The translations under genes were made by a program, and so were the position numbers. From the NCBI GenBank assembly GCA_963705375.1, contig OY970071.1, forward strand, positions 870,001 to 902,000: 32,000 bases of DNA, given 5' to 3'. Shown one piece after another: positions 3,180 through 24,574 of this stretch; within the stretch, counting starts at the first letter, position 1, and every line of letters begins with the position of its first letter. The stretch comes from Candidatus Saccharimonadota bacterium. GTDB taxonomy: Archaea; Micrarchaeota; Micrarchaeia; Micrarchaeales; Micrarchaeaceae. The notes beneath the pieces are model-generated. The model was not told the DNA's origin. It saw nothing but the letters and a program-made list of their open reading frames with translations, and searched no databases.

Positions 3180-6100
3180 ATGCTCTATCTAGACAGTCTA
3201 GTGCTTCACAACTTCAAATCATTCAGGCATGCGAGCATAAAGTTCAAGCAGAGCTTCAATTGCATAGTGGGGCCCAACGGCTCCGGCAAATCCAACATAT
3301 GCGACTCGCTGCTTTTCGTGCTCGGCGAGAGCTCCCTCAAGCGCCTGCGCGTCACAAGCCTGCAGCAGCTCATAAACAACAAGGCTAAGCCCAAGGATGA
3401 AGACGGCACAAAGCGCGCGTACGTCAAGCTCAACTTCATGGGGGACGAGCAACTGGAAATAGCACGCATCATAAAATCAAACAACAAGGTAGGTTACCGG
3501 CTGAACGGCAAGCACGTGACAAGGCAGGAGATGTTGGAAGTCATGCGCGCACACAAGAGTGAGATCAGCGAGGTGAACACCATAACCCAAGGTGAGATCA
3601 TGACCATGGTCTCGCTGAACCCGAAGGAACGAAGAGAACTGATAGAAGTCGCAGCTGGAATACAGGAGTTCAACGAGAAGAAGCAAGCATCGCTGGCCGA
3701 GCTTGATAAAGTGGAGGCAAAGACGAACGAGGCTAACATTCTTCTGAACGAGCGTCTCGGATTCATCCGCGAGCTGGAAAAGGAGAAAGAGGATGCAGAG
3801 CGCTATATCTCTCTGGCCAACACAATAAAGCGGATAAACTATACGCTTCTGAAGACCAAAGAAGACGTCGCATCAAAGGAGCTGTACAAGTCCATATCTG
3901 TGTTGCGAGAGGTGGAAGGCAAGCAGTCTGCACTATCTGAGCGTATAACTCATGCGAACCTTGAGACAGAAGCGATACTTGCTAAGAAAGCTGAGCTGTC
4001 CAAGAAGCTGAACGAGCGCTCGATGGAAGTGAGTGCGACAAACAGGCAGCTGGAAGAAATAGGAAAGGAGCTCGCGGTCGCAGAGACGCAGCTTTCATCA
4101 TCAAAGGCAAGATCCGATGAGCTTGGCACACAGCTCGCGCAGCTTCAGTCCACAAAGAAGAGAATCACCGAACAAATATCTGGAAACGAATCCACACTTA
4201 AGGCGCTGCAGGAAGAGCTTTCTGCGCTTGCCAAGCAGCTGGAAGGGAAGGATGTGCACATTGTGGAGGACGAGTTCGAACTGATCAACAAGCATACTAG
4301 CAACCAGCACAGCATCGACGCGCTTTTGGAAAAGCAGAATGTGCTGAACAGCCGGCTGGTCCAGAACAAGTTAGGCATAGAATCGATAGACCATGGCACA
4401 AAGCAGGAAAGATCCGCTGTAGAAGAAAAGCGCAAGCGCCTGGAATCGGCAGAAAAGGAGCTCGCTTCAAAAAAGTCTGGTCTGGAAGCGCTTCATGGAA
4501 AGGCCTCTGATGTTAAAGTCAAACTGGGTGCGAAGGTCGCAGAGTGCGACACGATAAAACAGTCTCTAGATGCTCTCTATGTTGAAAGCGTCGAAGTGCG
4601 CGAGCGGCAAGCGGTGCTCGGCGCACGCACAGACAAAAGTGCCGAGGCGTTGAAGAAATCAATAAAAGGCTTTTACGGCCGCGCCTACGAACTCTGCAGC
4701 TATGAAGACAAGTATGCGAATGCGGTCAATGCCGCAGCGGCCGGCAGGTTCGGCTATTTCGTTGTCGATTCTATCGACGTTGCAAAGGAAGCGATCGCAA
4801 TAATCAAGGCAAAAGGGTTGGGCAGGGCGTCATTCATACCATTGAAAGAGATTGTTGCAATACAGCAGCAATCCACACGCGGCCTTGCGCCTGTCATAGG
4901 GCACGTGAGCTTCGACAAGAAGTATGAACGAGCATTCTCGTACATATTCGCAAACACGTATCTTGTCGAGAGCATAGACGAGGCGAAGCGCAAGGGCATA
5001 GGCAGCACCAGATTCGTCACAATAGATGGGGAGATTGTAGAGCCATCCGGCGTGGTGAGCGGCGGCTCTTCCGAGTCTTTGCAGTCGCCAGGAGTGCTGA
5101 TGGCAAGGCTGAAGGGAATAGATGAGAAGAGAAGCGCTCTGAATTCAAAGCTTGAAGAGATTATGGCTTCCGTAGAGCAGATGCGCAAAGCGGCAGCGGG
5201 CCACGAATCAGAGGCGCTGAGCCTTGGCATGGACATAAAGTATGCCGAAGAAGGCCTAGGCAAGCTCCGGAATGAGATACAGGAACTGGGCGATGCCCTG
5301 TCCAGGCAAGAAAAGGAGCGCGAAAGGCTGGACAAAGAAGTAAAGGCTTCAGGCGCAGAATACGATGCGCTTGCGCGCAGCATAGATGCATTGAAGAAAG
5401 AGAACGAGCGCATATACTCATTGGCGAACAGTCAAGACCGGCGCGGAGTCAAGGTAAGCAAGAGCGAGCTATCTGCAATAAAGGCCATGCAAGCCCACTC
5501 CGAAGAGCTTAAGGTGAAGATGGCAACTACTGGCAAAGAGAGCGAACTTCTCAAGAGTAGGATTGATGAGATAGACGTAGAGCTCAAGAAGGGCACGGAT
5601 GAGCGCAAGTCCCTTACCGTCTCACTCTCTTCACTGAGTGTATCCGTCGCTGAAAACAGGAAGAAGCAGGAAGAGCTGCAGCAGAAGATAAAGAGCCACG
5701 ACGCAAAGTCGGCAAGCATCTTCAAAGAGGTCGAGGAGGCCGATTCAGTGATGTCGAAGCTTGCGCAGGAGCGCGGCAGGCTGTCCAGCGATGCCGAGAA
5801 GCTGTCCAGGGAGTCAATCGAGCTTCAATCCAGAGGGTCGCAGCTCCAGACAAGAATAGCTGACATAAAGGCAGAGCTCATGTCCTATCAGGACATAGAC
5901 ATGCTCGATGAGCGCAATTCCGAAAAGCTCGAATCACAGCTCGCAGTGTCGAAGAGCGAGCTGGAGAAGCTTGGCGCAGTCAACCTCAAGGCCACAGAGC
6001 TTTACCTTCAGAAGAGCCGCGATGCTGAAGAGGCAAAGCAGAAGCTCGGCATACTGCAGACAGACAAGAGCTCCATACTGGCCATGATCAACGAGATAGA

Positions 6101-6575: not shown

Positions 6576-6590
6576 CGCTAGTTGACGTTT

Positions 6591-7589
6591 ATGTCTAAGG
6601 ATAGCAGGCATGTGGCAAACAAGAAGGGCAAGCAGATCTCAACACTCCCTCTGTATGCGCTTCTGGTGGTGTTGTTCATACTCTACATGTTCTTCCAGGC
6701 TGTTGCGCTTCTCGCCATTATTCTCGGTCTGATGCTGCTCATCGTCTTCGTGCTGCTTGTCATATTTGAACTTGTGGGCAGCATAGCCGACGAGGGATTT
6801 GCCAGAAGTGTGATGGAACTGGTGATCGCGATAGCCGCTGTGTTTGTGCTGTGGTATGCCGCAAGAATCTTCCTGCACACTGCGTATCCACTTGATGTTG
6901 TTCCCAGCTGCAGCATGCAGCCGAACCTTAACAGAGGTGATGTGATACTCCTACAAGGCGTGACGAACATAACCGATCTGCACGCGCCGGTGATAAGCGT
7001 CAGCAAGGCTTCGTATGCCCAGATGAATTCCAGCATAGACGAAGAGTTCCTTGCGTGCGTGGCGTACAACATCAGCGATGGCAGGGTGCTGACATCGCAG
7101 GTGATGAAACCGGGCTATTCGCTAGGTCTTTACAATGAGCTCACAGGCAAGATCGCGCAGCAGGGCGCGCAGGGCGGAAACCTCGTGCAGTACACGTGCG
7201 GCGAAAGCGAGGTGAGGTTCAGCAACGGAACCTCTGCCACAGAGGCTTACACATCCGCGATAACCATCGCAGGTTCGACAATAATAGGAGACAGGAACAA
7301 CTCGGTGGTGGTGTATCAAACCACTCCATCGGATCTGTTCTACAAGTTTGGCGACAGCTACATCGTGCACAGGCTTTATGCAATAATGAATGTAAGCGGC
7401 AGTTATTACTTGCTAACAAAAGGCGACAACAATCCTGGCCTTGACATGGAGTTCGGCAACTATCCTGCGGGCCTAGACCAGTTGCAAGGAAAGGCGATAG
7501 CCTCTGTGCCGTACCTTGGCTATGTGAAGCTTATCTTCACTCAAAGCTACACCGAACCCGCAGGCTGCAACACAACAATGTCTGACTAG
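6591..7589 (+). CDS. archaeal-type signal peptidase I (Sec11/S26B-like) with extra N-terminal TM helices and a large insertion
   Basis: The PSCSMQPNLNRGDVILL box (catalytic Ser), IVHRL (His) and LLTKGDNNPGLD are the conserved archaeal/eukaryal SPase I boxes. ATG 6591 is preferred over the TTG 6582 used by the track. Confidence 0.7.
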   Translation: MSKDSRHVANKKGKQISTLPLYALLVVLFILYMFFQAVALLAIILGLMLLIVFVLLVIFELVGSIADEGFARSVMELVIAIAAVFVLWYAARIFLHTAYPLDVVPSCSMQPNLNRGDVILLQGVTNITDLHAPVISVSKASYAQMNSSIDEEFLACVAYNISDGRVLTSQVMKPGYSLGLYNELTGKIAQQGAQGGNLVQYTCGESEVRFSNGTSATEAYTSAITIAGSTIIGDRNNSVVVYQTTPSDLFYKFGDSYIVHRLYAIMNVSGSYYLLTKGDNNPGLDMEFGNYPAGLDQLQGKAIASVPYLGYVKLIFTQSYTEPAGCNTTMSD

Positions 7590-9158: not shown

Positions 9159-9242
9159 GCACTCACCCGTTTGCCGCTCATGCCACGCATAGATATTTCA
9201 TATAACAATATAAAGCAGTACACCCAAACTGTCAGGAATCAG

Positions 9243-10688
9243 ATGGCAAAAAAATATCATACGGCTGCAATGGCAATAGTGTTGCTTTCGCTTGTTGCGA
9301 TTGGCGTACTAATCACCACTCACGCAATCGGATTCATCATGCGCCTGGCGCTCGCAATCATAGTTATGGTGCTGGCCGGTGTAGGCATACAGCGCACGCT
9401 ATCTCTCAACGGCAGTTCGGGCCTTTACTTGCTCGCTGGGAAAAAAGGAATCAAGTTCATAGACCGCATGTCTAAACACAACAGAACTTTCTGGAACTCC
9501 ATGGCGCTGTGGGGTTTTGTGCTGGGCTTCGGCCTGCTGAGCTATCCCCTCATGCGCGGAAAGCTCAGCAAGAAGCTGTTTGCGTTTGGCATGGTCTCGC
9601 TTGCCGTAATGTATGTATTTGTGGCGCCGTATCTAGGGTATGCTCTGCAATTCATAAACGTATCGGTCATACAAAACAGCGTATCGGCTACAACGTCCAC
9701 ACACGTTGGCGCGCTCACGTATGTCCTCGTTGCAGTTACACTGCTTTTCGGCTTTTCAGGTTTCGCAATCATATCCATAGTCTACAACGCAGCGGTCATA
9801 CTTGGCGGCATAGGGTCCTATCTTATGGGCCTCATCTCGGGCTCCGCAAGCACATCGGCACTGAAAGCTCAAGTTCCAGGCGTGGTGCCCATAATACCAG
9901 GTCTGGACATACCGCTAGTAGCAGGTATAATCTCTTTGGTTGTTCTTCTCACAGTGCACGAGGTTTCACATGGGGTTCTGTCGCGCATGTTCGGCGTGAA
10001 GCTCAAGTCCATAGGCCTGCTCATGTTTGGCATATTGCCTATAGGCGCGTTTGTCGAACCGGATGACAAAGGTATCAAGAAGCTGAATTCTTCTAAGCGG
10101 ATAGGCATATTCTCTGCAGGCATCGCTGCAAATTTCATCACGATGCTTTTATTCTTCTTATTGATGCTTGCGATACTGCTATACATAGCGCCAAAGGCGT
10201 ACTCTTACGGCGTTGTAGTGTCTGGCACTACGAAAGGCTATCCTGCATACAATGTGTTGAGTGTCGGATCACAGGTGCTTGAGTGGAACGGACATAACGT
10301 TAGCAGCATAGGTGTGCTGGCGAGTGCAGCTTCTGAAGACAAACCCAACGAACCGGTCACGATAGTGACAGATGCAGGCTCCTACACATTCAATGCACTT
10401 CCGGATCCTGCCAACACATCAAGAGGCATAATAGGCGTGAACTTGAGCTATAAGCCCATAATAAAAGGCGCAACAGCTTCGGCCGTGTACTTCTTCTACA
10501 CGCTTTTTGCACTATCCATGCTGCTCAACTTCCTTGTCGCTGTGTTCAACCTGCTCCCTCTACCTGGCCTTGACGGCTGGGCCATATACAACGCAAGCAT
10601 CAAAAACAAGCGTATCATCAAATGCCTAGCTGCTGTGGTGGTCGCAGTGATAGTGATAAACGCACTGCCGTGGATCTTCTATGTATGA
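9243..10688 (+). CDS. M50 site-2 protease family intramembrane metalloprotease with PDZ-like insertion
   Basis: HEVSHG (HExxH) and NLLPLPGLDG motifs, many TM helices, and a soluble PDZ-like insert (GVVVSGTTKGYPAYNVLSVGSQVLEWNGHNV...). ATG 9243 is preferred over the track's TTG 9171 because an A/T-rich TATA-like element (atataaag, about 9207-9214) lies approx. 30 nt upstream. Confidence 0.75.
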   Translation: MAKKYHTAAMAIVLLSLVAIGVLITTHAIGFIMRLALAIIVMVLAGVGIQRTLSLNGSSGLYLLAGKKGIKFIDRMSKHNRTFWNSMALWGFVLGFGLLSYPLMRGKLSKKLFAFGMVSLAVMYVFVAPYLGYALQFINVSVIQNSVSATTSTHVGALTYVLVAVTLLFGFSGFAIISIVYNAAVILGGIGSYLMGLISGSASTSALKAQVPGVVPIIPGLDIPLVAGIISLVVLLTVHEVSHGVLSRMFGVKLKSIGLLMFGILPIGAFVEPDDKGIKKLNSSKRIGIFSAGIAANFITMLLFFLLMLAILLYIAPKAYSYGVVVSGTTKGYPAYNVLSVGSQVLEWNGHNVSSIGVLASAASEDKPNEPVTIVTDAGSYTFNALPDPANTSRGIIGVNLSYKPIIKGATASAVYFFYTLFALSMLLNFLVAVFNLLPLPGLDGWAIYNASIKNKRIIKCLAAVVVAVIVINALPWIFYV

Positions 10689-10723: not shown

Positions 10724-10739
10724 TTGTTATTTAATCTTT
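10724..10739 (+). promoter_or_regulatory. conserved A/T-rich promoter-like motif TTGTTATTTAATCTTT upstream of pilin gene 1
   Basis: The motif ends exactly 23 nt before ATG 10763. A 15/16-identical copy sits at the same distance from ATG 12685. Confidence 0.5.
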
Positions 10740-10762
10740 AATTCGGACAATCCTGTGATCAC

Positions 10763-12457
10763 ATGAAGGGACCCATTCACCGAGCCGTTCTTAAAAAGCC
10801 AAGGGAAGAACAAGCCCAGTCTGCAATCGAGTATATCACAACATATGGGTGGGCGATATTGGTGATAGCTACTGTGGTTGTTGTGTTATTGTATCTTGGT
10901 TTGTTCTCAAACAACCTGTCAAATAATTTGTGCGTCGGCACGGCAGGATATGTGTGCAGCAGTCCGTTATTGTTAAACAACGGTCTTCTATCTGTTGCGA
11001 TAGAACCGATAAGTAGCAGCGCTCTGTCGGTCACAGGACTTGGTTGCTCAAATTCTTCTGCGGCTCCATCCACATTCGTGCCACAAAACATACCGTTTGA
11101 GCCTCTTCAGCCAACGAGCCTTTCGTTCCATTGCAATTTGCCCTCCAATTCTCTAGGGGCCACTTTCTCTGGCACGCTTTGGGTTGAGTACCGCAGCGGC
11201 ACTGCTACTGGCGTATCGCAGGTGAGTACAATAGACACGAAAGTGGAGACGGGCGCGTCGACGTCAGGGTATTCCTTATCCGTAACACCAGGAGAATCCG
11301 GCACTGGCACAGTATCTTGCAGCCTCTCGTGCTCAGGAAGCTATTCCGCTGGTACGCAGATAACCCTGACAGCAACTCCAAGTGTAGGATACGCTTTTTC
11401 GGGCTGGACAGGTACATATTCGAACAGCATAAATCCATGGACCTTCAACATGCCATCAAATACTGTCGACGAGCACGCGAACTTCATACCGACTCCAGAA
11501 ACTATCTTGTTGGCCCAAACGACAGGAATTCCAAGGAGCCTAGCAGTTGACGGCAACGGCAACGTCCAATGGGTCGACGAAAGCATTACCGGCGGCAGCA
11601 TAACCGAGATGCCCAACGGCATTACTGGTATTTCAAATGCCATAACGATATATCCTGGAGGAAGCGGTTGTTCAGAGGGCATAGCAATTGGCACCAACGG
11701 AAACATATACTGGACAGATGTCTGTTCAGGCAATGTAATGGAGATGCCCAGTGGTAAGGCTGGCATCGACAATGCCATAACCCTTTACTCTGGCGGCACT
11801 ACTCTTGAGTTCATAGCGGTCCATAACGGTAATGTTTATTGGACTACATATGGCTATTCTGAAACACCTGGCACTGTGATGGAGATGCCTCAAGGCCGGA
11901 CAGGCAACGACAATACCATAACGCTTTACTCTGGCGCATCCGGTGTTTATCGCATAGCCGTCGACACCATCGGCAACGTCTATTGGACAAACAACCTTAA
12001 CGGCACTGTGACCGAAATGCCTCATGGCAAGACCGGTTCTGCAAACGCAATAACTCTTTATTCCGAAGGAAGCAATCCTTACGGCATAGCCGTCGACACC
12101 ATCGGCAACGTCTACTGGACCGATGCGACTGCAAACCTTGGCAGCGTTATGGAGATGCCTCACGGCATGGCCGGCAACAACAATGCAATCACACTCAGTT
12201 CTGACGAGCCTATTACAAATGGTGCCCCATCAAGCAATCCTGCAGGCATAGCCGTCGACACCATCGGCAACGTCTATTGGACCGATTACGGCACAGGCAA
12301 CCTGATGGAGATGCCTCACGGTCTGGTCGGAGATTCTAATGTCATAACTCTTTATTCTGGTGTAGGTTCTGAAAATCCTGACGGGATAGCGGTACACGGC
12401 AGCAACGTCTATTGGGCAGGTATCACCGGCGCAGCTATAAGGGAATATGCTCCGTGA
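10763..12457 (+). CDS. type IV pilin-like protein (class III signal peptide) fused to one B-repeat-like domain and a YWTD/NHL-like beta-propeller
   Basis: The N-terminus is MKGPIHRAVLKKPREEQA|QSAIEYITTYGWAILVIATVVVVLLYLGLF, a basic leader plus hydrophobic helix. It is followed by the 4-Cys module shared with the next two genes. A GYAFSGWTG...NPWTFNMPSNTVDEHANF domain comes next. Then come 6-7 repeats of approx. 44 aa of the form GIAVDxxGNVYWTD...G(S/T)VMEMPxGxxGxxNAITLYSG. Confidence 0.75.
   Translation: MKGPIHRAVLKKPREEQAQSAIEYITTYGWAILVIATVVVVLLYLGLFSNNLSNNLCVGTAGYVCSSPLLLNNGLLSVAIEPISSSALSVTGLGCSNSSAAPSTFVPQNIPFEPLQPTSLSFHCNLPSNSLGATFSGTLWVEYRSGTATGVSQVSTIDTKVETGASTSGYSLSVTPGESGTGTVSCSLSCSGSYSAGTQITLTATPSVGYAFSGWTGTYSNSINPWTFNMPSNTVDEHANFIPTPETILLAQTTGIPRSLAVDGNGNVQWVDESITGGSITEMPNGITGISNAITIYPGGSGCSEGIAIGTNGNIYWTDVCSGNVMEMPSGKAGIDNAITLYSGGTTLEFIAVHNGNVYWTTYGYSETPGTVMEMPQGRTGNDNTITLYSGASGVYRIAVDTIGNVYWTNNLNGTVTEMPHGKTGSANAITLYSEGSNPYGIAVDTIGNVYWTDATANLGSVMEMPHGMAGNNNAITLSSDEPITNGAPSSNPAGIAVDTIGNVYWTDYGTGNLMEMPHGLVGDSNVITLYSGVGSENPDGIAVHGSNVYWAGITGAAIREYAP
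11952..12282 (+). repeat. intragenic near-identical 37-nt repeats within beta-propeller blades
   Basis: gcatagccgtcgacaccatcggcaacgtctattggac occurs at 11952..11988 and identically at 12246..12282. A copy with one T>C change occurs at 12084..12120. All copies are in frame and encode IAVDTIGNVYWT. Confidence 0.9.
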
Positions 12458-12645
12458 TGTGTCTGTATTCAGATTGTGCCAGCTTAACATCATTCACGCT
12501 TGTGACTTCTAGTTGCATTGCACTTTCTTTTGACCGTTCAATATGCTCCAACACTCTATGTTGAATATATACGCGCACTTCAGTTGCTCCAATTTAGGAT
12601 AATTCTAGACAGGAAAACGGCATTTCAAGACGTTGCCGTGTCACC

Positions 12646-12661
12646 TTGTTATTTATTCTTT
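12646..12661 (+). promoter_or_regulatory. conserved A/T-rich promoter-like motif TTGTTATTTATTCTTT upstream of pilin gene 2
   Basis: The motif ends exactly 23 nt before ATG 12685 and is 15/16 identical to 10724..10739. Confidence 0.5.
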
Positions 12662-12684
12662 CCTTTCAATACTCTTCCGATCGT

Positions 12685-13200
12685 ATGAAGGGTCTTGGCC
12701 GCTTAAGAGATCTTTCTAAGAATCCGGGCTATCTGACGGCCCAGTCAGCGATGGAATACCTTGTGACATACGGATGGGTCATTGTGGTCCTCTCTATAGT
12801 CGTTATGGTGCTGTGGCTTTTAGGTGTGTTTAAAGTAGGTGGAAGCTCATCGGCTTCGTTCTGCACTCCTATTGCGCCTTACACCTGCAGCAACCCCGTG
12901 CTGTTCTCAAACGGCCTTCTTTCAGTTCGTGTCGAAGAACTCGGAAGTGCTATGACTGTGAGCGGCTTGGGCTGCTCAAGCAGCAGTGTTGCTCCTTCTG
13001 CCTTTTCACAGACAAACATACAACTTTTACCTGGCATCTCGTATAATCTAAACTTCTCTTGCAACATCTCATCAAATGCGATTGGCACAACGTTCTCTGG
13101 TTCTCTGTGGGTCCAGTATGGCGGCGGCTCACAAACTGGCTTATCGCAAATAAGCACTGTAAATGCAAAAGTGGTGGCATCGGCGACAGAATCTCCGTAA
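12685..13200 (+). CDS. minimal type IV pilin-like protein (class III signal peptide + 4-Cys module only)
   Basis: MKGLGRLRDLSKNPGYLTA|QSAMEYLVTYGWVIVVLSIVVMVLWLLGVF is followed by the conserved module CTPIAPYTCSNPVLFSNGLL...GLGCSS...FSCNISSNAIGTTFSGSLWVQY. ATG 12685 is preferred over TTG 12646, which lies inside a promoter-like motif. The MKG start parallels gene 10763. Confidence 0.7.
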   Translation: MKGLGRLRDLSKNPGYLTAQSAMEYLVTYGWVIVVLSIVVMVLWLLGVFKVGGSSSASFCTPIAPYTCSNPVLFSNGLLSVRVEELGSAMTVSGLGCSSSSVAPSAFSQTNIQLLPGISYNLNFSCNISSNAIGTTFSGSLWVQYGGGSQTGLSQISTVNAKVVASATESP

Positions 13201-13286
13201 GCGCAACCTTAAATTCTCCTTTTTATCCCTTTCTTTCAATATATTTGTGCTTTTATGAACATTTCTATGGTGCGTGCACAGTCGCA

Positions 13287-14885
13287 ATGGAATACTTGAT
13301 GACGTATGGATGGGCCATCCTCATCATCGCAGTCGTGCTCGCTTCTCTGTTTGCGTTGGGTGTGTTTAACAGCGGTGCGAGTGTCGCAAGTTCTGCATGC
13401 TCGACGCGCGTAGGCTATTTATGCAGCAATCCCATCCTGCGTTCCAACGGTCTGTTGTTAACAACAATGGGCTCTTCACAGCAGATAACAGTTACAGGTC
13501 TTGGCTGTACTAGCGGCTCTTCCGCGCCTTCAAGTTCAAGTTTCAACTCTGTGCATTTTGATCTCTCCGCTGGCGAGCAGAAGACTGTAAACTTCCCATG
13601 CCTGCTATCTTCAAATGCGATCGGTACTCCTTTCTCTGGAAACCTATGGCTGCGGTACACACAGGGCGGCCAATCAGACCTTGTTGTTCAGATGGCGTCT
13701 GTAAATTCAAAGGTCACCGCACTTGGCTTCGGAAGCAGTGGTGGCGGAAGCACTACTACAATCAGCGGAAGCACCACAACAACTGGCAGCACAACCACAA
13801 CTATTGGAGGTGGATCCCCAACTTGCTATCATCTTGCGCTTTCTTACGATTCTGGAGGGTTTTCGGCTGTTGCGAATCCAACCCAGTCATCTGGGTGCTC
13901 TACTGGCAACTATGTTTCCGGAGCATCAATCACGCTTACAGCCGACCCTATCACAGGGAATGCTCTGGCATACTGGAACGGCAACTTCCTTTCTTATACG
14001 GGCCTTTCAAGTATTTACAATCCATGGACGTTCAACATGCCCGCACACGACATACATGAAGAAGCCGAATTCGGCGACGCATCCACTTGCTATTATCTAG
14101 GGTCTATGTATGGCAATGCTGCAGGGTTAGTGATGTACCCTCCTAGTTCAGAAGGCTGTGGTACTTATGAATATCTGCCCGGAGATTCAGTAACGCTCAC
14201 AGCAATTCCGAATTCAGGGTATTCTTTTACGAGTTGGTCTAGTCCAGTTTCTGGAACTTCAAGCTCTTTGACATTCACCATGCCTGCATACACATTTGAA
14301 GAGGATCCTACATTCACCTATACTGACTGCCATCAGCTTACGCTTACAACAAACGGCCCACCATCATGCTATACGTTAGGCTCCTGCGAGATAGATGACA
14401 ACTCTGATAGTAGTATATTATGCCCTTCACCTACTCACGCACCCGGCGATACCATATATCTTTCAGCATTTCACAATCCTGGATCTGGAGATTATTTCGT
14501 AGGCTGGACTGGCCCATATCCCGGCAATGATACCTACTTACAATTCAGTATGCCTGACAACGCTGTCAACGAGGAAGCGCACTTTACCGACAATGCATGT
14601 CTCCCTCTGACACTCGGTGTCTATTTTAGTCAAGGACCTTACGATGGACTTACCGAGAACGGACCTGATTTTATATCTTTTTCACCTACTTCAAGTTCGG
14701 TCGGGTGTCCTGCCGGTTTCTTTTTGGCGGATACTTCAGTTACCGTCACTGCAAACGTCCCTACAGGATATTACTTATACACTTGGTCGAGCGTCCCTTC
14801 AAGTATTTCCATCGATTCTGGATATATGTTCACCATGCCCGAATCTCCAGTTATTGCCACTGCGTATGAATTTTATACAGGCTAA
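13287..14885 (+). CDS. type IV pilin-like protein with Thr/Ser-rich linker and four tandem B-repeat-like domains; N-terminal leader out of frame (possible pseudogene or assembly indel)
   Basis: From ATG 13287 it reads MEYLMTYGWAILIIAVVLASLF..., then the shared 4-Cys module, a GGGSTTTISGSTTTTGSTTTTIGGGS linker, and four approx. 85-95 aa domains ending in xMPxxxxxExAxF. The expected leader MNISMVRAQS is encoded from ATG 13255 in another frame. The track's 13059 start overlaps the previous gene and is rejected. Confidence 0.65.
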   Translation: MEYLMTYGWAILIIAVVLASLFALGVFNSGASVASSACSTRVGYLCSNPILRSNGLLLTTMGSSQQITVTGLGCTSGSSAPSSSSFNSVHFDLSAGEQKTVNFPCLLSSNAIGTPFSGNLWLRYTQGGQSDLVVQMASVNSKVTALGFGSSGGGSTTTISGSTTTTGSTTTTIGGGSPTCYHLALSYDSGGFSAVANPTQSSGCSTGNYVSGASITLTADPITGNALAYWNGNFLSYTGLSSIYNPWTFNMPAHDIHEEAEFGDASTCYYLGSMYGNAAGLVMYPPSSEGCGTYEYLPGDSVTLTAIPNSGYSFTSWSSPVSGTSSSLTFTMPAYTFEEDPTFTYTDCHQLTLTTNGPPSCYTLGSCEIDDNSDSSILCPSPTHAPGDTIYLSAFHNPGSGDYFVGWTGPYPGNDTYLQFSMPDNAVNEEAHFTDNACLPLTLGVYFSQGPYDGLTENGPDFISFSPTSSSVGCPAGFFLADTSVTVTANVPTGYYLYTWSSVPSSISIDSGYMFTMPESPVIATAYEFYTG

Positions 14886-19809: not shown

Positions 19810-20676
19810 ATGTCTGCTATTAAATTTTCAGCGCAAACAACGGTAGAGTATGTCATGATATATGCAGCTACCGGCCTTATCATAGGTGTCGTACTGGTTG
19901 TCTTGGCTTGGATGGGTGTATTTAATTTGTCAACCCAGGTGCCGACCACGCAGATGGGCTCCTGCAGGTTGGCCCGGCAGATTGTACTGGGCAATGGTGT
20001 TCAAGTGAGCCAGCTGGGTAATTGCAGAGGCAGGCCTTTGGAATTCTTTACTCAGTTCAATGGCCAGAACAGCAAAATATCGATTCCGTTGACTCCCTTA
20101 TCTGGTAGAGGTTCTTTCTCGATATTTACGTGGATAAAAACCAACACCACAGGCATAAGGCAAGGAATCATAACAATAGGAAGTCAGTACTGTACAGGAA
20201 AGGGTGTTATGCTTTCTATTGACAGCACCGGTTATTTGGAGGAGGGCCTGACCTGCTCTTCTCCCGGGCTGAATTCTGCACCTGTGATTGTTAATGACGG
20301 AAAGTTTCATTTTGTAGGTGTTGTGGATAATGCAGGCATGGTTCAACTCTATGTCGATGGTGCGGCTGCTGGCAACGCTGTTTCGCAATCGCCTAATCTT
20401 GGTAAAGGGTTCAATTACATAGGTGTTGATGCGTCATCATACTTTTTCAATGGAATAATCACCAATGTCCAGGTCTACAACACATCCCTTTCCACGGACG
20501 AAATACAAAGCCTGTATGGTGAGTGGATCAGCGGTGCGCCGCTGCCACTACCGACCCTTATCGGGTGGTGGCAACTTAACGGCGACACTAGCGACTACAG
20601 CGGAAACAACAATAACAACGGAGTGCCCTTCAATGTACTGGTGACTACAGTATTGACCACATTCAAGAGCAAATAA
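19810..20676 (+). CDS. type IV pilin-like protein (class III signal peptide) with LamG/concanavalin A-like lectin domain
   Basis: Starts MSAIKFSA|QTTVEYVMIYAATGLIIGVVLVVLAWMGVF. The following domain has LamG_3-like hallmarks: FNGQNSKISIP, FSIFTWIKT, NDGKFHFVGVVDNAGMVQLYVDG and FNGIITNVQVYNTSLSTDEIQSLY. Confidence 0.7.
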   Translation: MSAIKFSAQTTVEYVMIYAATGLIIGVVLVVLAWMGVFNLSTQVPTTQMGSCRLARQIVLGNGVQVSQLGNCRGRPLEFFTQFNGQNSKISIPLTPLSGRGSFSIFTWIKTNTTGIRQGIITIGSQYCTGKGVMLSIDSTGYLEEGLTCSSPGLNSAPVIVNDGKFHFVGVVDNAGMVQLYVDGAAAGNAVSQSPNLGKGFNYIGVDASSYFFNGIITNVQVYNTSLSTDEIQSLYGEWISGAPLPLPTLIGWWQLNGDTSDYSGNNNNNGVPFNVLVTTVLTTFKSK

Positions 20677-24453: not shown

Positions 24454-24574
24454 CGGATCTGGCGGGATTTTCATAAGCTTTCGGTTTTGATTAAACATTT
24501 GCCAAAAGTTTACTTTGAACCCGCAACCACCCGGTCCGAAGCCGGGCGCGCTATCCAAGTTGCGCCACAGATCC
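24454..24574 (-). tRNA. tRNA-Arg(UCG) interrupted by a 46-nt intron in the T-loop (between positions 59 and 60)
   Basis: The minus strand folds by hand as follows. Acceptor GGATCTG pairs perfectly with CAGATCC, and the discriminator is G. D-arm: GCGC-AACTTGGATA-GCGC. Anticodon arm: CCCGG-CTTCGGA-CCGGG, with anticodon TCG. Variable loop: TGGTT. T-stem GCGGG pairs with CCCGC. The T-loop TTCAAA|T is split by the intron. The mature length is 75 nt and no CCA is encoded. Confidence 0.8.
24468..24513 (-). other. tRNA intron with hBHBh' splicing motif
   Basis: The pre-tRNA folds as GCGGG-TTCA-[AAG]-TAAACTTTTGG-loop(17 nt)-CCGAAAGCTTA-TGAA-[AAT]-CCCGC. This is a 5-bp outer helix, a 3-nt bulge, a 4-bp central helix (TTCA:TGAA), a 3-nt bulge and an 11-bp inner helix with one A-C mismatch and one G-U pair. 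Cleavage after the second nucleotide of each bulge yields the T-loop TTCAAAT. Confidence 0.7.

Follow-up and report, generated by a model that had tools for sequence, protein, structure and literature searches.

In bacteria, more than 1200 modular pilins with 264 architectures are on record, among them PilB (vWA) and PilC (ConA-like lectin) of Streptococcus sanguinis, and proteins of this kind have been proposed as tip-exposed adhesins (PMC8179133). For archaeal type IV filament systems, too, proteins that combine a class III signal with binding domains, as well as predicted adhesins, have been described (PMC4858521; bioRxiv 10.64898/2026.04.22.720090). Here we consider three tandem genes (genes 1, 2 and 3) on the forward strand of a 32,000-nucleotide (nt) stretch of DNA (contig OY970071.1, positions 870,001 to 902,000), referred to throughout as the window. 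By sequence comparison these genes are paralogs within a very large, almost wholly micrarchaeal and as yet unnamed family of type IV pilin-like proteins. Our preferred reading, which we hold with a probability of roughly 0.65, is that they encode modular adhesins of a stand-alone, type IV pilin-like kind, which machinery with its genes elsewhere, presumably in the same genome, would process and assemble.

Of the archaeal systems with which the family can be compared, the Epd pilus of Methanococcus maripaludis (PF04021/DUF361) shares with it a leader that is short and basic, Gln and Glu at +1 and +5, and a hydrophobic helix; this pairing of Gln with Glu is the signature of EppA-processed Methanococcus pilins (PMC3875500). 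Further parallels lie in genome organization: the Epd or System 1 type has many stand-alone pilin genes scattered around the chromosome and some large pilin-like proteins with binding domains, and it occurs in DPANN archaea and in the micrarchaeon Mia14 (PMC5498576; bioRxiv 10.64898/2026.04.22.720090). There are also differences. The module family has no PF04021 match, its residue at –1 is mostly Ala or Ser rather than Gly, and it carries Tyr at +6 and a TYGW motif; and whereas the major Epd pilin is a headless helix of ~60 amino acids (aa), the module family has a ~110-aa beta head with four cysteines. The adhesive PilA/AapB pilins of Sulfolobales (6NAV, 8TIB, 6W8X, 8Q30) do combine an N-terminal helix with a beta-sandwich head of similar size, but identity is just 12–23%, TM scores are 0.31–0.44 and there is no detectable sequence homology; moreover, the Sulfolobus pilins lack Glu at +5 (PMC3875500), are not disulfide-rich and have no fused extra modules. 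Flp/Tad pilins share Glu at +5 and Tyr at +6 behind the cleavage site, yet they are 50–80 aa long with no globular head, in contrast to mature proteins of at least 150 aa with a beta head in the module family. The Sulfolobus bindosome and SPIII proteins likewise place a functional extracellular domain behind a class III signal and a hydrophobic N-terminus that is conserved, and are encoded by genes unlinked to machinery (PMC3047682; bioRxiv 10.64898/2026.04.22.720090), but in the module family a conserved pilin head stands between helix and functional modules; genes 1–3 and a fourth class III-like gene of the window (gene 4) contain no solute-binding-protein domain, and the window has no ABC transporter genes.

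The likeness to bacterial modular pilins is one of layout: a pilin module to which other modules (the lectin PF13385, repeats) are grafted, with a short linker. Genes 1, 3 and 4 follow this plan, with Flg_new_2 and a propeller in gene 1, four Flg_new_2 domains in gene 3 and Laminin_G_3 in gene 4. Here, however, the signal is of archaeal class III type, with no IPR012902 or N-methylation motif, modular forms make up the majority of the family, and modules differ between near-syntenic genomes, all of this being sequence evidence. The initial annotation had regarded the architecture as undescribed. That holds for the family, which is annotated in neither Pfam nor NCBIfam and whose motif strings stand in no searchable paper, but not for the modular-pilin principle, which is published. 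New are the scaffold family itself, how large it is, its confinement to Micrarchaeota, and the way in which modular forms dominate it and turn over.

Results

Three tandem genes with a shared N-terminal module

The organization of the three genes, all on the + strand, is as follows (coordinates are those of the window; the promoters are putative).

10724-10762, +: putative promoter of gene 1, with the TATA-like box TTATTTAA at 10727-10734, ~30 nt before the ATG
10763-12457, +: gene 1, modular pilin-like protein of 564 aa
10763-10816, +: gene 1 leader (aa 1-18)
10817-10906, +: gene 1 Q+1 to E+5 segment and hydrophobic helix (aa 19-48)
to 11257, +: gene 1 four-Cys beta domain (to ~aa 165)
11270-11485, +: gene 1 B-repeat (aa 170-241), Flg_new_2 (divergent InlB B-repeat), E 1.3e-14
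11525-12454, +: gene 1 YWTD/NHL-like propeller of seven repeats (aa ~255-564)
12646-12684, +: putative promoter of gene 2, with a TTATTTAT box (repeat D7)
12685-13200, +: gene 2, pilin module alone, 171 aa from its own ATG (leader aa 1-19; Q+1 at 12742; helix aa 22-45; eight-strand beta domain aa 59-164 with Cys 60, 68, 97 and 126)
13255-13284, +: gene 3 start and leader MNISMVRAQS, out of frame with the body
13284-14885, +: gene 3 body, nearest in-frame ATG at 13287, in the frame of the open reading frame (ORF) 13059-14885
to ~13727, +: gene 3 AMEYLMTYGW helix and four-Cys beta domain
~13728-13823, +: gene 3 linker rich in threonine and serine (T/S)
~13824-14882, +: gene 3 four divergent InlB B-repeat domains, each opening with Cys, Flg_new_2 E 1.2e-27

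The three proteins share an N-terminal module of ~165 aa, made up of a basic leader, the Q+1/E+5/Y+6/TYGW signature, a hydrophobic helix and the four-Cys beta domain. Homology is evident in every pairing (BLASTP): gene 2 is 49% identical to gene 1 over 164 aa (E 5e-41) and 48% identical to gene 3 over 149 aa (E 6e-33), while the modules of genes 1 and 3 match at E 7e-32. The four cysteines are kept in at least 90% of 108 distant family members. The sequence observation from which this work started is thus confirmed: the three ORFs are as described, the leaders and hydrophobic stretches are exact as quoted, and the motifs C-x7-C-S-(S/N)-P, NGLL, GLGC(S/T) and SN(A/S)(I/L)G..FSG.LW align in all three proteins. 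Recent gene conversion among the three modules was considered and rejected, DNA identity being just 60–72%. The sequences upstream of genes 1 and 2 also resemble one another, with 72% identity over 47 nt (repeat D7).

Behind the module the proteins take different forms. Domain scans and repeat counts bear out one B-repeat (a Flg_new_2 match) followed by a seven-repeat propeller in gene 1, no added module in gene 2, and a T/S-rich linker with four Flg_new_2 B-repeats in gene 3; genes 1 and 3 are, in other words, a shared scaffold joined to adhesin-type modules. The propeller of gene 1 spans seven GN(V/I)YW(T/V/A) repeats of ~45 aa each (aa 266-560), and its profile matches (NHL, SBBP, Vgb_lyase) are all weak. 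It had been claimed that the proteins diverge completely past the module. The C-termini do differ, but a homologous B-repeat directly follows the module in both gene 1 and gene 3, including a stretch identical at 22 of 23 nt (D6) that encodes NPWTFNMP.

A large family with rapid turnover of C-terminal modules

An exhaustive profile search with the module returned 7129 cluster representatives at E≤1e-3; 2521 of them remain at a threshold of 1e-10 and 363 at one of 1e-30, the top matches being mostly 350–1000 aa long. In a second search at least 5434 proteins matched at E≤1e-5; every named one is a "hypothetical protein", and the module corresponds to no Pfam domain. The motif strings turned up no paper in the searchable literature. 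The published Micrarchaeota S-layer protein is a different one. For comparison of loci, one genome per GTDB species was scanned with the module profile and the best 80 of 549 relatives were taken; the window's own genome is not among the genomes scanned, and the best locus is 54% identical. Among these best 80 loci 74 are labelled Micrarchaeota, and the others appear to be unclassified or mis-binned contigs. Other labels were seen for L014 and L052 (Acidiferrales), for L041 and L081 (Marsarchaeota), and for the proteins P0163 and P0166 (Baltobacteraceae, Aquilonibacter); the contigs with bacterial or Marsarchaeota labels are most likely mis-binned Micrarchaeota contigs.

Intact genomic copies number 116, of which 51 (~44%) are module-only, with 140–210 aa in the mature protein, and 65 are longer than 210 aa. 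Tandem arrays of two to five family copies are common among the related loci. The C-terminal additions are diverse: propellers of Lactonase/YncE, Kelch, NHL and WD40-like types, along with DUF2341, Flg_new_2, Laminin_G_3, glycine-rich regions and C-terminal HINT domains. The last of these, of pretoxin-HINT/intein-splicing type, sit at the very C-terminus of P0017, P0085, P0164, P0177 and P0162 with no toxin after them, a placement that suggests self-processing pilin-like proteins.

Two comparisons bear on how modules and scaffold evolve. The protein P0009 joins a scaffold, linker and first B-repeat of the gene 3 type (64% identity) to a propeller of the gene 1 type. Locus L002, the best of the scan, is syntenic with the window, its order being SMC, signal peptidase I, FEN-1, a helix-turn-helix gene, an M50 peptidase and three tandem family genes, and then metallophosphoesterase, Lhr, DUF218, L10P and L1. 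The flanking M50, phosphoesterase and Lhr proteins of window and L002 are 73–87% identical and the pilin modules 54–60%, while no relation exists between the C-terminal modules, which in L002 are DUF2341-like and glycine-rich and in the window are a propeller, none and B-repeats. Surface proteins that evolve fast and recombine show such a pattern: from strain to strain the C-terminal modules are replaced rapidly, and the scaffold stays.

The class III signal signature

Leader statistics were compiled from the 193 family members that have a leader. Its median length is 11 aa and its net charge +3. Position –2 is Lys or Arg in 89%, and position –1 is Ala, Ser or Gly in 77% (Ala 109, Ser 31, Gly 8 of 193). 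There is next to no variation in Gln at +1, Glu at +5, Tyr at +6 or T-Y-G-W at +9 to +12, behind which come ~14 hydrophobic residues; the consensus mature start reads Q-S-A-M-E-Y-L-M-T-Y-G-W, with +13 to +25 hydrophobic. Because a junction of charged and small residues precedes the hydrophobic core and Glu stands at +5, the layout is that of a class III signal and not of a Sec signal, and the leader statistics as a whole fit an archaeal class III signal peptide. The leaders of genes 1 and 2 are 18–19 aa long with a net charge of +3; their junctions (Q-A|Q and T-A|Q) match the class III pattern at –1 only, with Q and T at –2.

The conserved N-terminal tag QSAMEYLMTYGW allows the family to be found in any Micrarchaeota genome or proteome. 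Many database entries begin within the signature itself, at MEYLMTYGW (25 of 233, among them P0028, P0051, P0052 and P0054) or at MTYGW (6 of 233, including P0042 and P0043). In these, gene callers probably took an internal Met and left off the leader, so that automated predictors would miss the signal peptide.

Predicted fold

In the AlphaFold model of the full gene 2 protein a helix (aa 22-45) leads into an all-beta head; a model of the head alone, built from a 78-sequence alignment, has eight strands (pLDDT 90.4, pTM 0.81). With the full model as query, the top PDB matches in Foldseek are archaeal type IV pilins (8tib at E 3.7e-4, then 6nav and 8q30), and with the head alone the top three are again archaeal pilins (6w8x, 8tib and 6nav; E ~0.02, probability 0.99). 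That the N-terminal module looks like an archaeal type IV pilin, as had been proposed, is therefore upheld by the signal statistics, by the combination of helix and beta-sandwich head, and by the first rank of pilins, weak as these matches are. The structure search gave a divided answer: archaeal pilins do rank first, but their scores are weak and generic beta-sandwiches come close. We take the structural matches to be supportive of a pilin-like fold in the predicted models without proving it.

Gene 2 and the short genes of other Micrarchaeota

The gene 2 protein is 100% identical to the database protein P0001, and an equally identical copy is present in L001, a Logan contig from an independent public sequencing run (ERR11594402). 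The gene stops cleanly ~8 aa past the end of the module. The initial annotation had read gene 2 as the filament subunit of the set, a role that fits poorly with what its relatives look like. When distances among 116 modules are compared, each of the three genes has only long modular proteins as its eight nearest relatives; for gene 2 the L002 copies of 511 and 484 aa come first, and its positional orthologs at that syntenic locus bear extensions of ~350 aa.

Short genes of a different standing exist in other genomes. In ~20 Micrarchaeota genomes one to four tandem module-only genes (150–190 aa) occupy a single conserved position, convergent with genes for a Dph2-like protein and ribosomal protein L10e (both read from the sequence start only). 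Examples of this core locus are:

L009, 16414-16935: core-locus short gene
L033, 9509-11137: core-locus short genes
L044, 9364-10486: core-locus short genes
L072, 8710-11152: core-locus short genes
~16 further loci: same arrangement

These copies cluster together, the nearest neighbour being another such gene in 23 of 27 cases. Since its relatives are long and modular, its –2 residue is T rather than K/R, and short pilins exist at the core locus, gene 2 is not the foremost candidate for a major pilin. It is more likely a short derivative inside the modular clade, and the short pilins at the Dph2/L10e locus of other Micrarchaeota are better major-pilin candidates. The gene 2 protein could still be incorporated into a filament.

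The leader frameshift of gene 3

The leader of gene 3 lacks 1 nt at ~13284, where a single G serves both the codon TCG (13282-13284) and the main-frame GCA. The break marked by a slash when the leader was first written out is thus a genuine 1-nt frameshift in the sequence as given. The short ORF that starts at ATG 13255 closes after 14 codons; a TATA-like box lies ~30 nt before this ATG, a spacing that genes 1 and 2 also have. In the orthologs P0009 and P0010 the leader is unbroken (..RAQSAMEYL), and among 121 homologous ORFs from the 80 related loci and the window gene 3 alone lacks an in-frame Q+1. Once repaired, its R-A|Q junction conforms at both –2 and –1. The body is an uninterrupted ORF of 1.6 kb with every Cys and repeat feature kept; because it is otherwise intact, any inactivation must be very recent, or else the base was lost in assembly. 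The frameshift would therefore be either a sequencing or assembly error or a very recent inactivation.

Discussion

On sequence grounds we class genes 1–3 as type IV pilin-like, probably working in the manner of pilins that bear a class III signal and belonging to no named pilin family. The manner in which such proteins might operate can be outlined. Each would be synthesized with its short basic leader as a class III signal peptide and inserted into the membrane by the hydrophobic N-terminal helix. A prepilin peptidase of FlaK/EppA type (A24) would cut before the invariant Gln, giving a mature start Q-S-A-(M/I)-E-Y with Glu at +5. A remotely encoded type IV filament ATPase and platform would then extract the protein, so that the helix packs inside a pilus, in its core, or inside a short stalk resembling a pseudopilus, while the head, a beta-sandwich presumably stabilised by disulfides, points outward. 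In genes 1 and 3 the head would be extended by B-repeats (in gene 3 via the flexible T/S linker) and, in gene 1, by the seven-repeat propeller as well. These C-terminal modules would act as adhesins, probably toward a host cell or matrix; on a pilus their most plausible place is at the tip or on flexible linkers.

A number of observations weigh against this account. Proteins with extensions of 350–400 aa cannot pack as major subunits of a tight filament. The –1 position is L, V, M or I in 22% of family members (Leu in 30 of 193), which is unusual for prepilin peptidase substrates, and genes 1 and 2 depart at –2 from the K/R found in 89% of the family. Neither PF04021 nor PF07790 nor TIGR02537 is matched in the Pfam and NCBIfam scans, with N-terminal fragments even at E≤10, and profiles built from 7 and from 70 sequences found no relevant sequence match in the PDB. 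The structural similarity to pilins is weak in both models (TM 0.31–0.44), and for the head alone (TM 0.40–0.44) it is marginally above that to generic beta-sandwiches. Lastly, profile scans of the sizeable ORFs of the 32-kb window found no T2SSE ATPase, T2SSF platform or A24 peptidase, in agreement with the initial annotation, and none of the three lies within 10 kb of the 80 related loci; motif searches for the ATPase and the A24 peptidase through 1.13 Mb of related loci returned just SRP54, Rad50, SufC-like and two unrelated proteins.

The last point carries less weight than it may seem. Unlinked machinery is no evidence against a pilin, because in archaea the genes for pilins commonly lie far from those for the machinery: in Cuniculiplasma they lie 500 kb away (PMC12448462), in M. 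maripaludis they occupy four loci (PMC3875500), and stand-alone pilin genes are found in many archaea (PMC4858521). Mia14 encodes two type IV pili systems, one of them of Methanococci type, together with one FlaK-like peptidase (PMC5498576), and these systems and the peptidase are said to be common to many Micrarchaea (PMC5498576). System 1 filaments, with many pilins, have been reported in methanogens and in DPANN archaea (bioRxiv 10.64898/2026.04.22.720090).

The main rival to pilin-like adhesins on filaments is surface display without long filaments: the proteins would be exported, and perhaps cleaved, in the way of pilins but stay at the cell surface, anchored by their helix or bundled in a short pseudopilus- or bindosome-like base, and form an adhesin coat. 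We consider this unlikely, yet it deserves attention, for most family members bear bulky C-terminal modules that are hard to fit along a filament, machinery is linked to none of the 80 loci, and there is precedent in the Sulfolobus bindosome (PMC3047682) and the widespread SPIII binding proteins (bioRxiv 10.64898/2026.04.22.720090). Such a coat does not readily account for the extreme conservation, over thousands of proteins, of the first ~25 mature residues, which is typical of helices that pack together and dock to one platform, or for the ~44% of copies that are pilin-only and often stand in tandem at a conserved locus; nor is there a substrate-binding-protein domain or a nearby ABC transporter. 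Alternatively, the proteins might be secreted through Sec in the ordinary way, or be type II membrane proteins; the conserved N-terminus would then be a signal peptide or signal-anchor with no relation to type IV filaments, and the M50 protease encoded next door might handle it. In favour of this are the lack of any pilin profile match to the module, the signal peptidase I gene in the window (6582-7589), and an M50 gene that lies immediately upstream of a family gene at three loci, namely the window, L002 and L009. But an M50 gene is adjacent in just 3 of 81 loci, where it tracks local synteny, and neither the invariant Glu at +5, nor the K/R-(A/S/G)-Q junction ahead of the hydrophobic core, nor the first place of pilins among structural matches is what such a protein would show. 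It strikes us as highly improbable.

The question of whether the locus is still intact is a separate one. Gene 3 may be a pseudogene and gene 2 a truncated remnant of a modular protein, in which case the window would hold no functioning set of major and minor pilins. The frameshift of gene 3 is unique among the 121 homologous ORFs, and the TATA-like box precedes ATG 13255 rather than ATG 13287; gene 2 has only long proteins as nearest relatives, and its L002 counterparts are extended; and the –2 residues of genes 1 and 2 are atypical. Against decay stand the uninterrupted 1.6-kb body of gene 3, which leaves room only for a very recent inactivation or a base missing through assembly error, and, for gene 2, the clean end, the promoter-like region of its own and the identical copy in an independent run. 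Partial decay is accordingly a possibility that we entertain with some doubt. The upshot for the initial annotation is that its interpretation, a filament subunit flanked by two adhesin-bearing subunits on one pilin scaffold, is partly supported and, taken as a whole, largely correct.

Micrarchaeota co-cultures have been cultivated, and the family, which is large, specific to one lineage, fast-evolving and unannotated, supplies candidate proteins for the attachment of DPANN archaea to their hosts. We put forward, tentatively, the broader proposal that Micrarchaeota use a single lineage-specific, disulfide-braced pilin scaffold for display in general, to which dozens of binding or self-processing modules (propellers, B-repeats, DUF2341, lectins, C-terminal HINT domains) are fitted and from one close strain to the next swapped. 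Presented on type IV filaments, this set of modules would be what chiefly decides how these obligate symbionts recognise a host and attach to it. If so, the family would be an archaeal and much expanded counterpart of the bacterial modular pilins. It would also take the modular-pilin principle into the archaea and give thousands of "hypothetical proteins" a family name.

Other features of the window

The window is archaeal housekeeping DNA from the chromosome of a member of the Micrarchaeota (DPANN). Its genes include those for SMC, signal peptidase I, FEN-1, two M50 peptidases, the Lhr helicase, ribosomal proteins L10P/P0, P1 and L1, RNase HII, ribonucleotide reductase and a fragment of a family B DNA polymerase. 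The features that touch on the preceding discussion are:

6582-7589, +: signal peptidase I, archaeal type, TIGR02228 E 1.1e-13, 335 aa against 158 model positions
9171-10688, +: M50 (site-2-type) peptidase, PDZ match weak and sub-threshold (counterparts at 4422-5918 of L002 and 14755-16251 of L009)
19810-20676, +: gene 4, a fourth class III-like gene, 288 aa, leader MSAIKFSA|QTTVEY followed by a hydrophobic helix

Gene 4 has the same Q+1/E+5/Y+6 type of leader but a different body, in which the four-Cys module is missing and aa 84-233 form a Laminin_G_3 domain of ConA-like lectin type. LamG proteins and their expansion have been tied to type IV pili loci in Mia14 (PMC5498576), and by analogy gene 4 matches that expansion.

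A general functional link between the pilin-like genes and the upstream M50 protease was considered and rejected, given that the adjacency is confined to the 3 of 81 loci and follows local synteny. The M50 gene of L002 aligns to the window protein in two frames (4474-5061 and 5037-5918), which points to a frameshift or an assembly error. The signal peptidase I matches TIGR02228 in two stretches and, from this alignment, appears to carry a large insertion. Finally, a 59-nt segment on the – strand (24516-24574) gives a borderline Rfam match to tRNA (29.2 bits against a cut-off of 29) with no ARAGORN call, and may be a tRNA fragment or an atypical archaeal tRNA.

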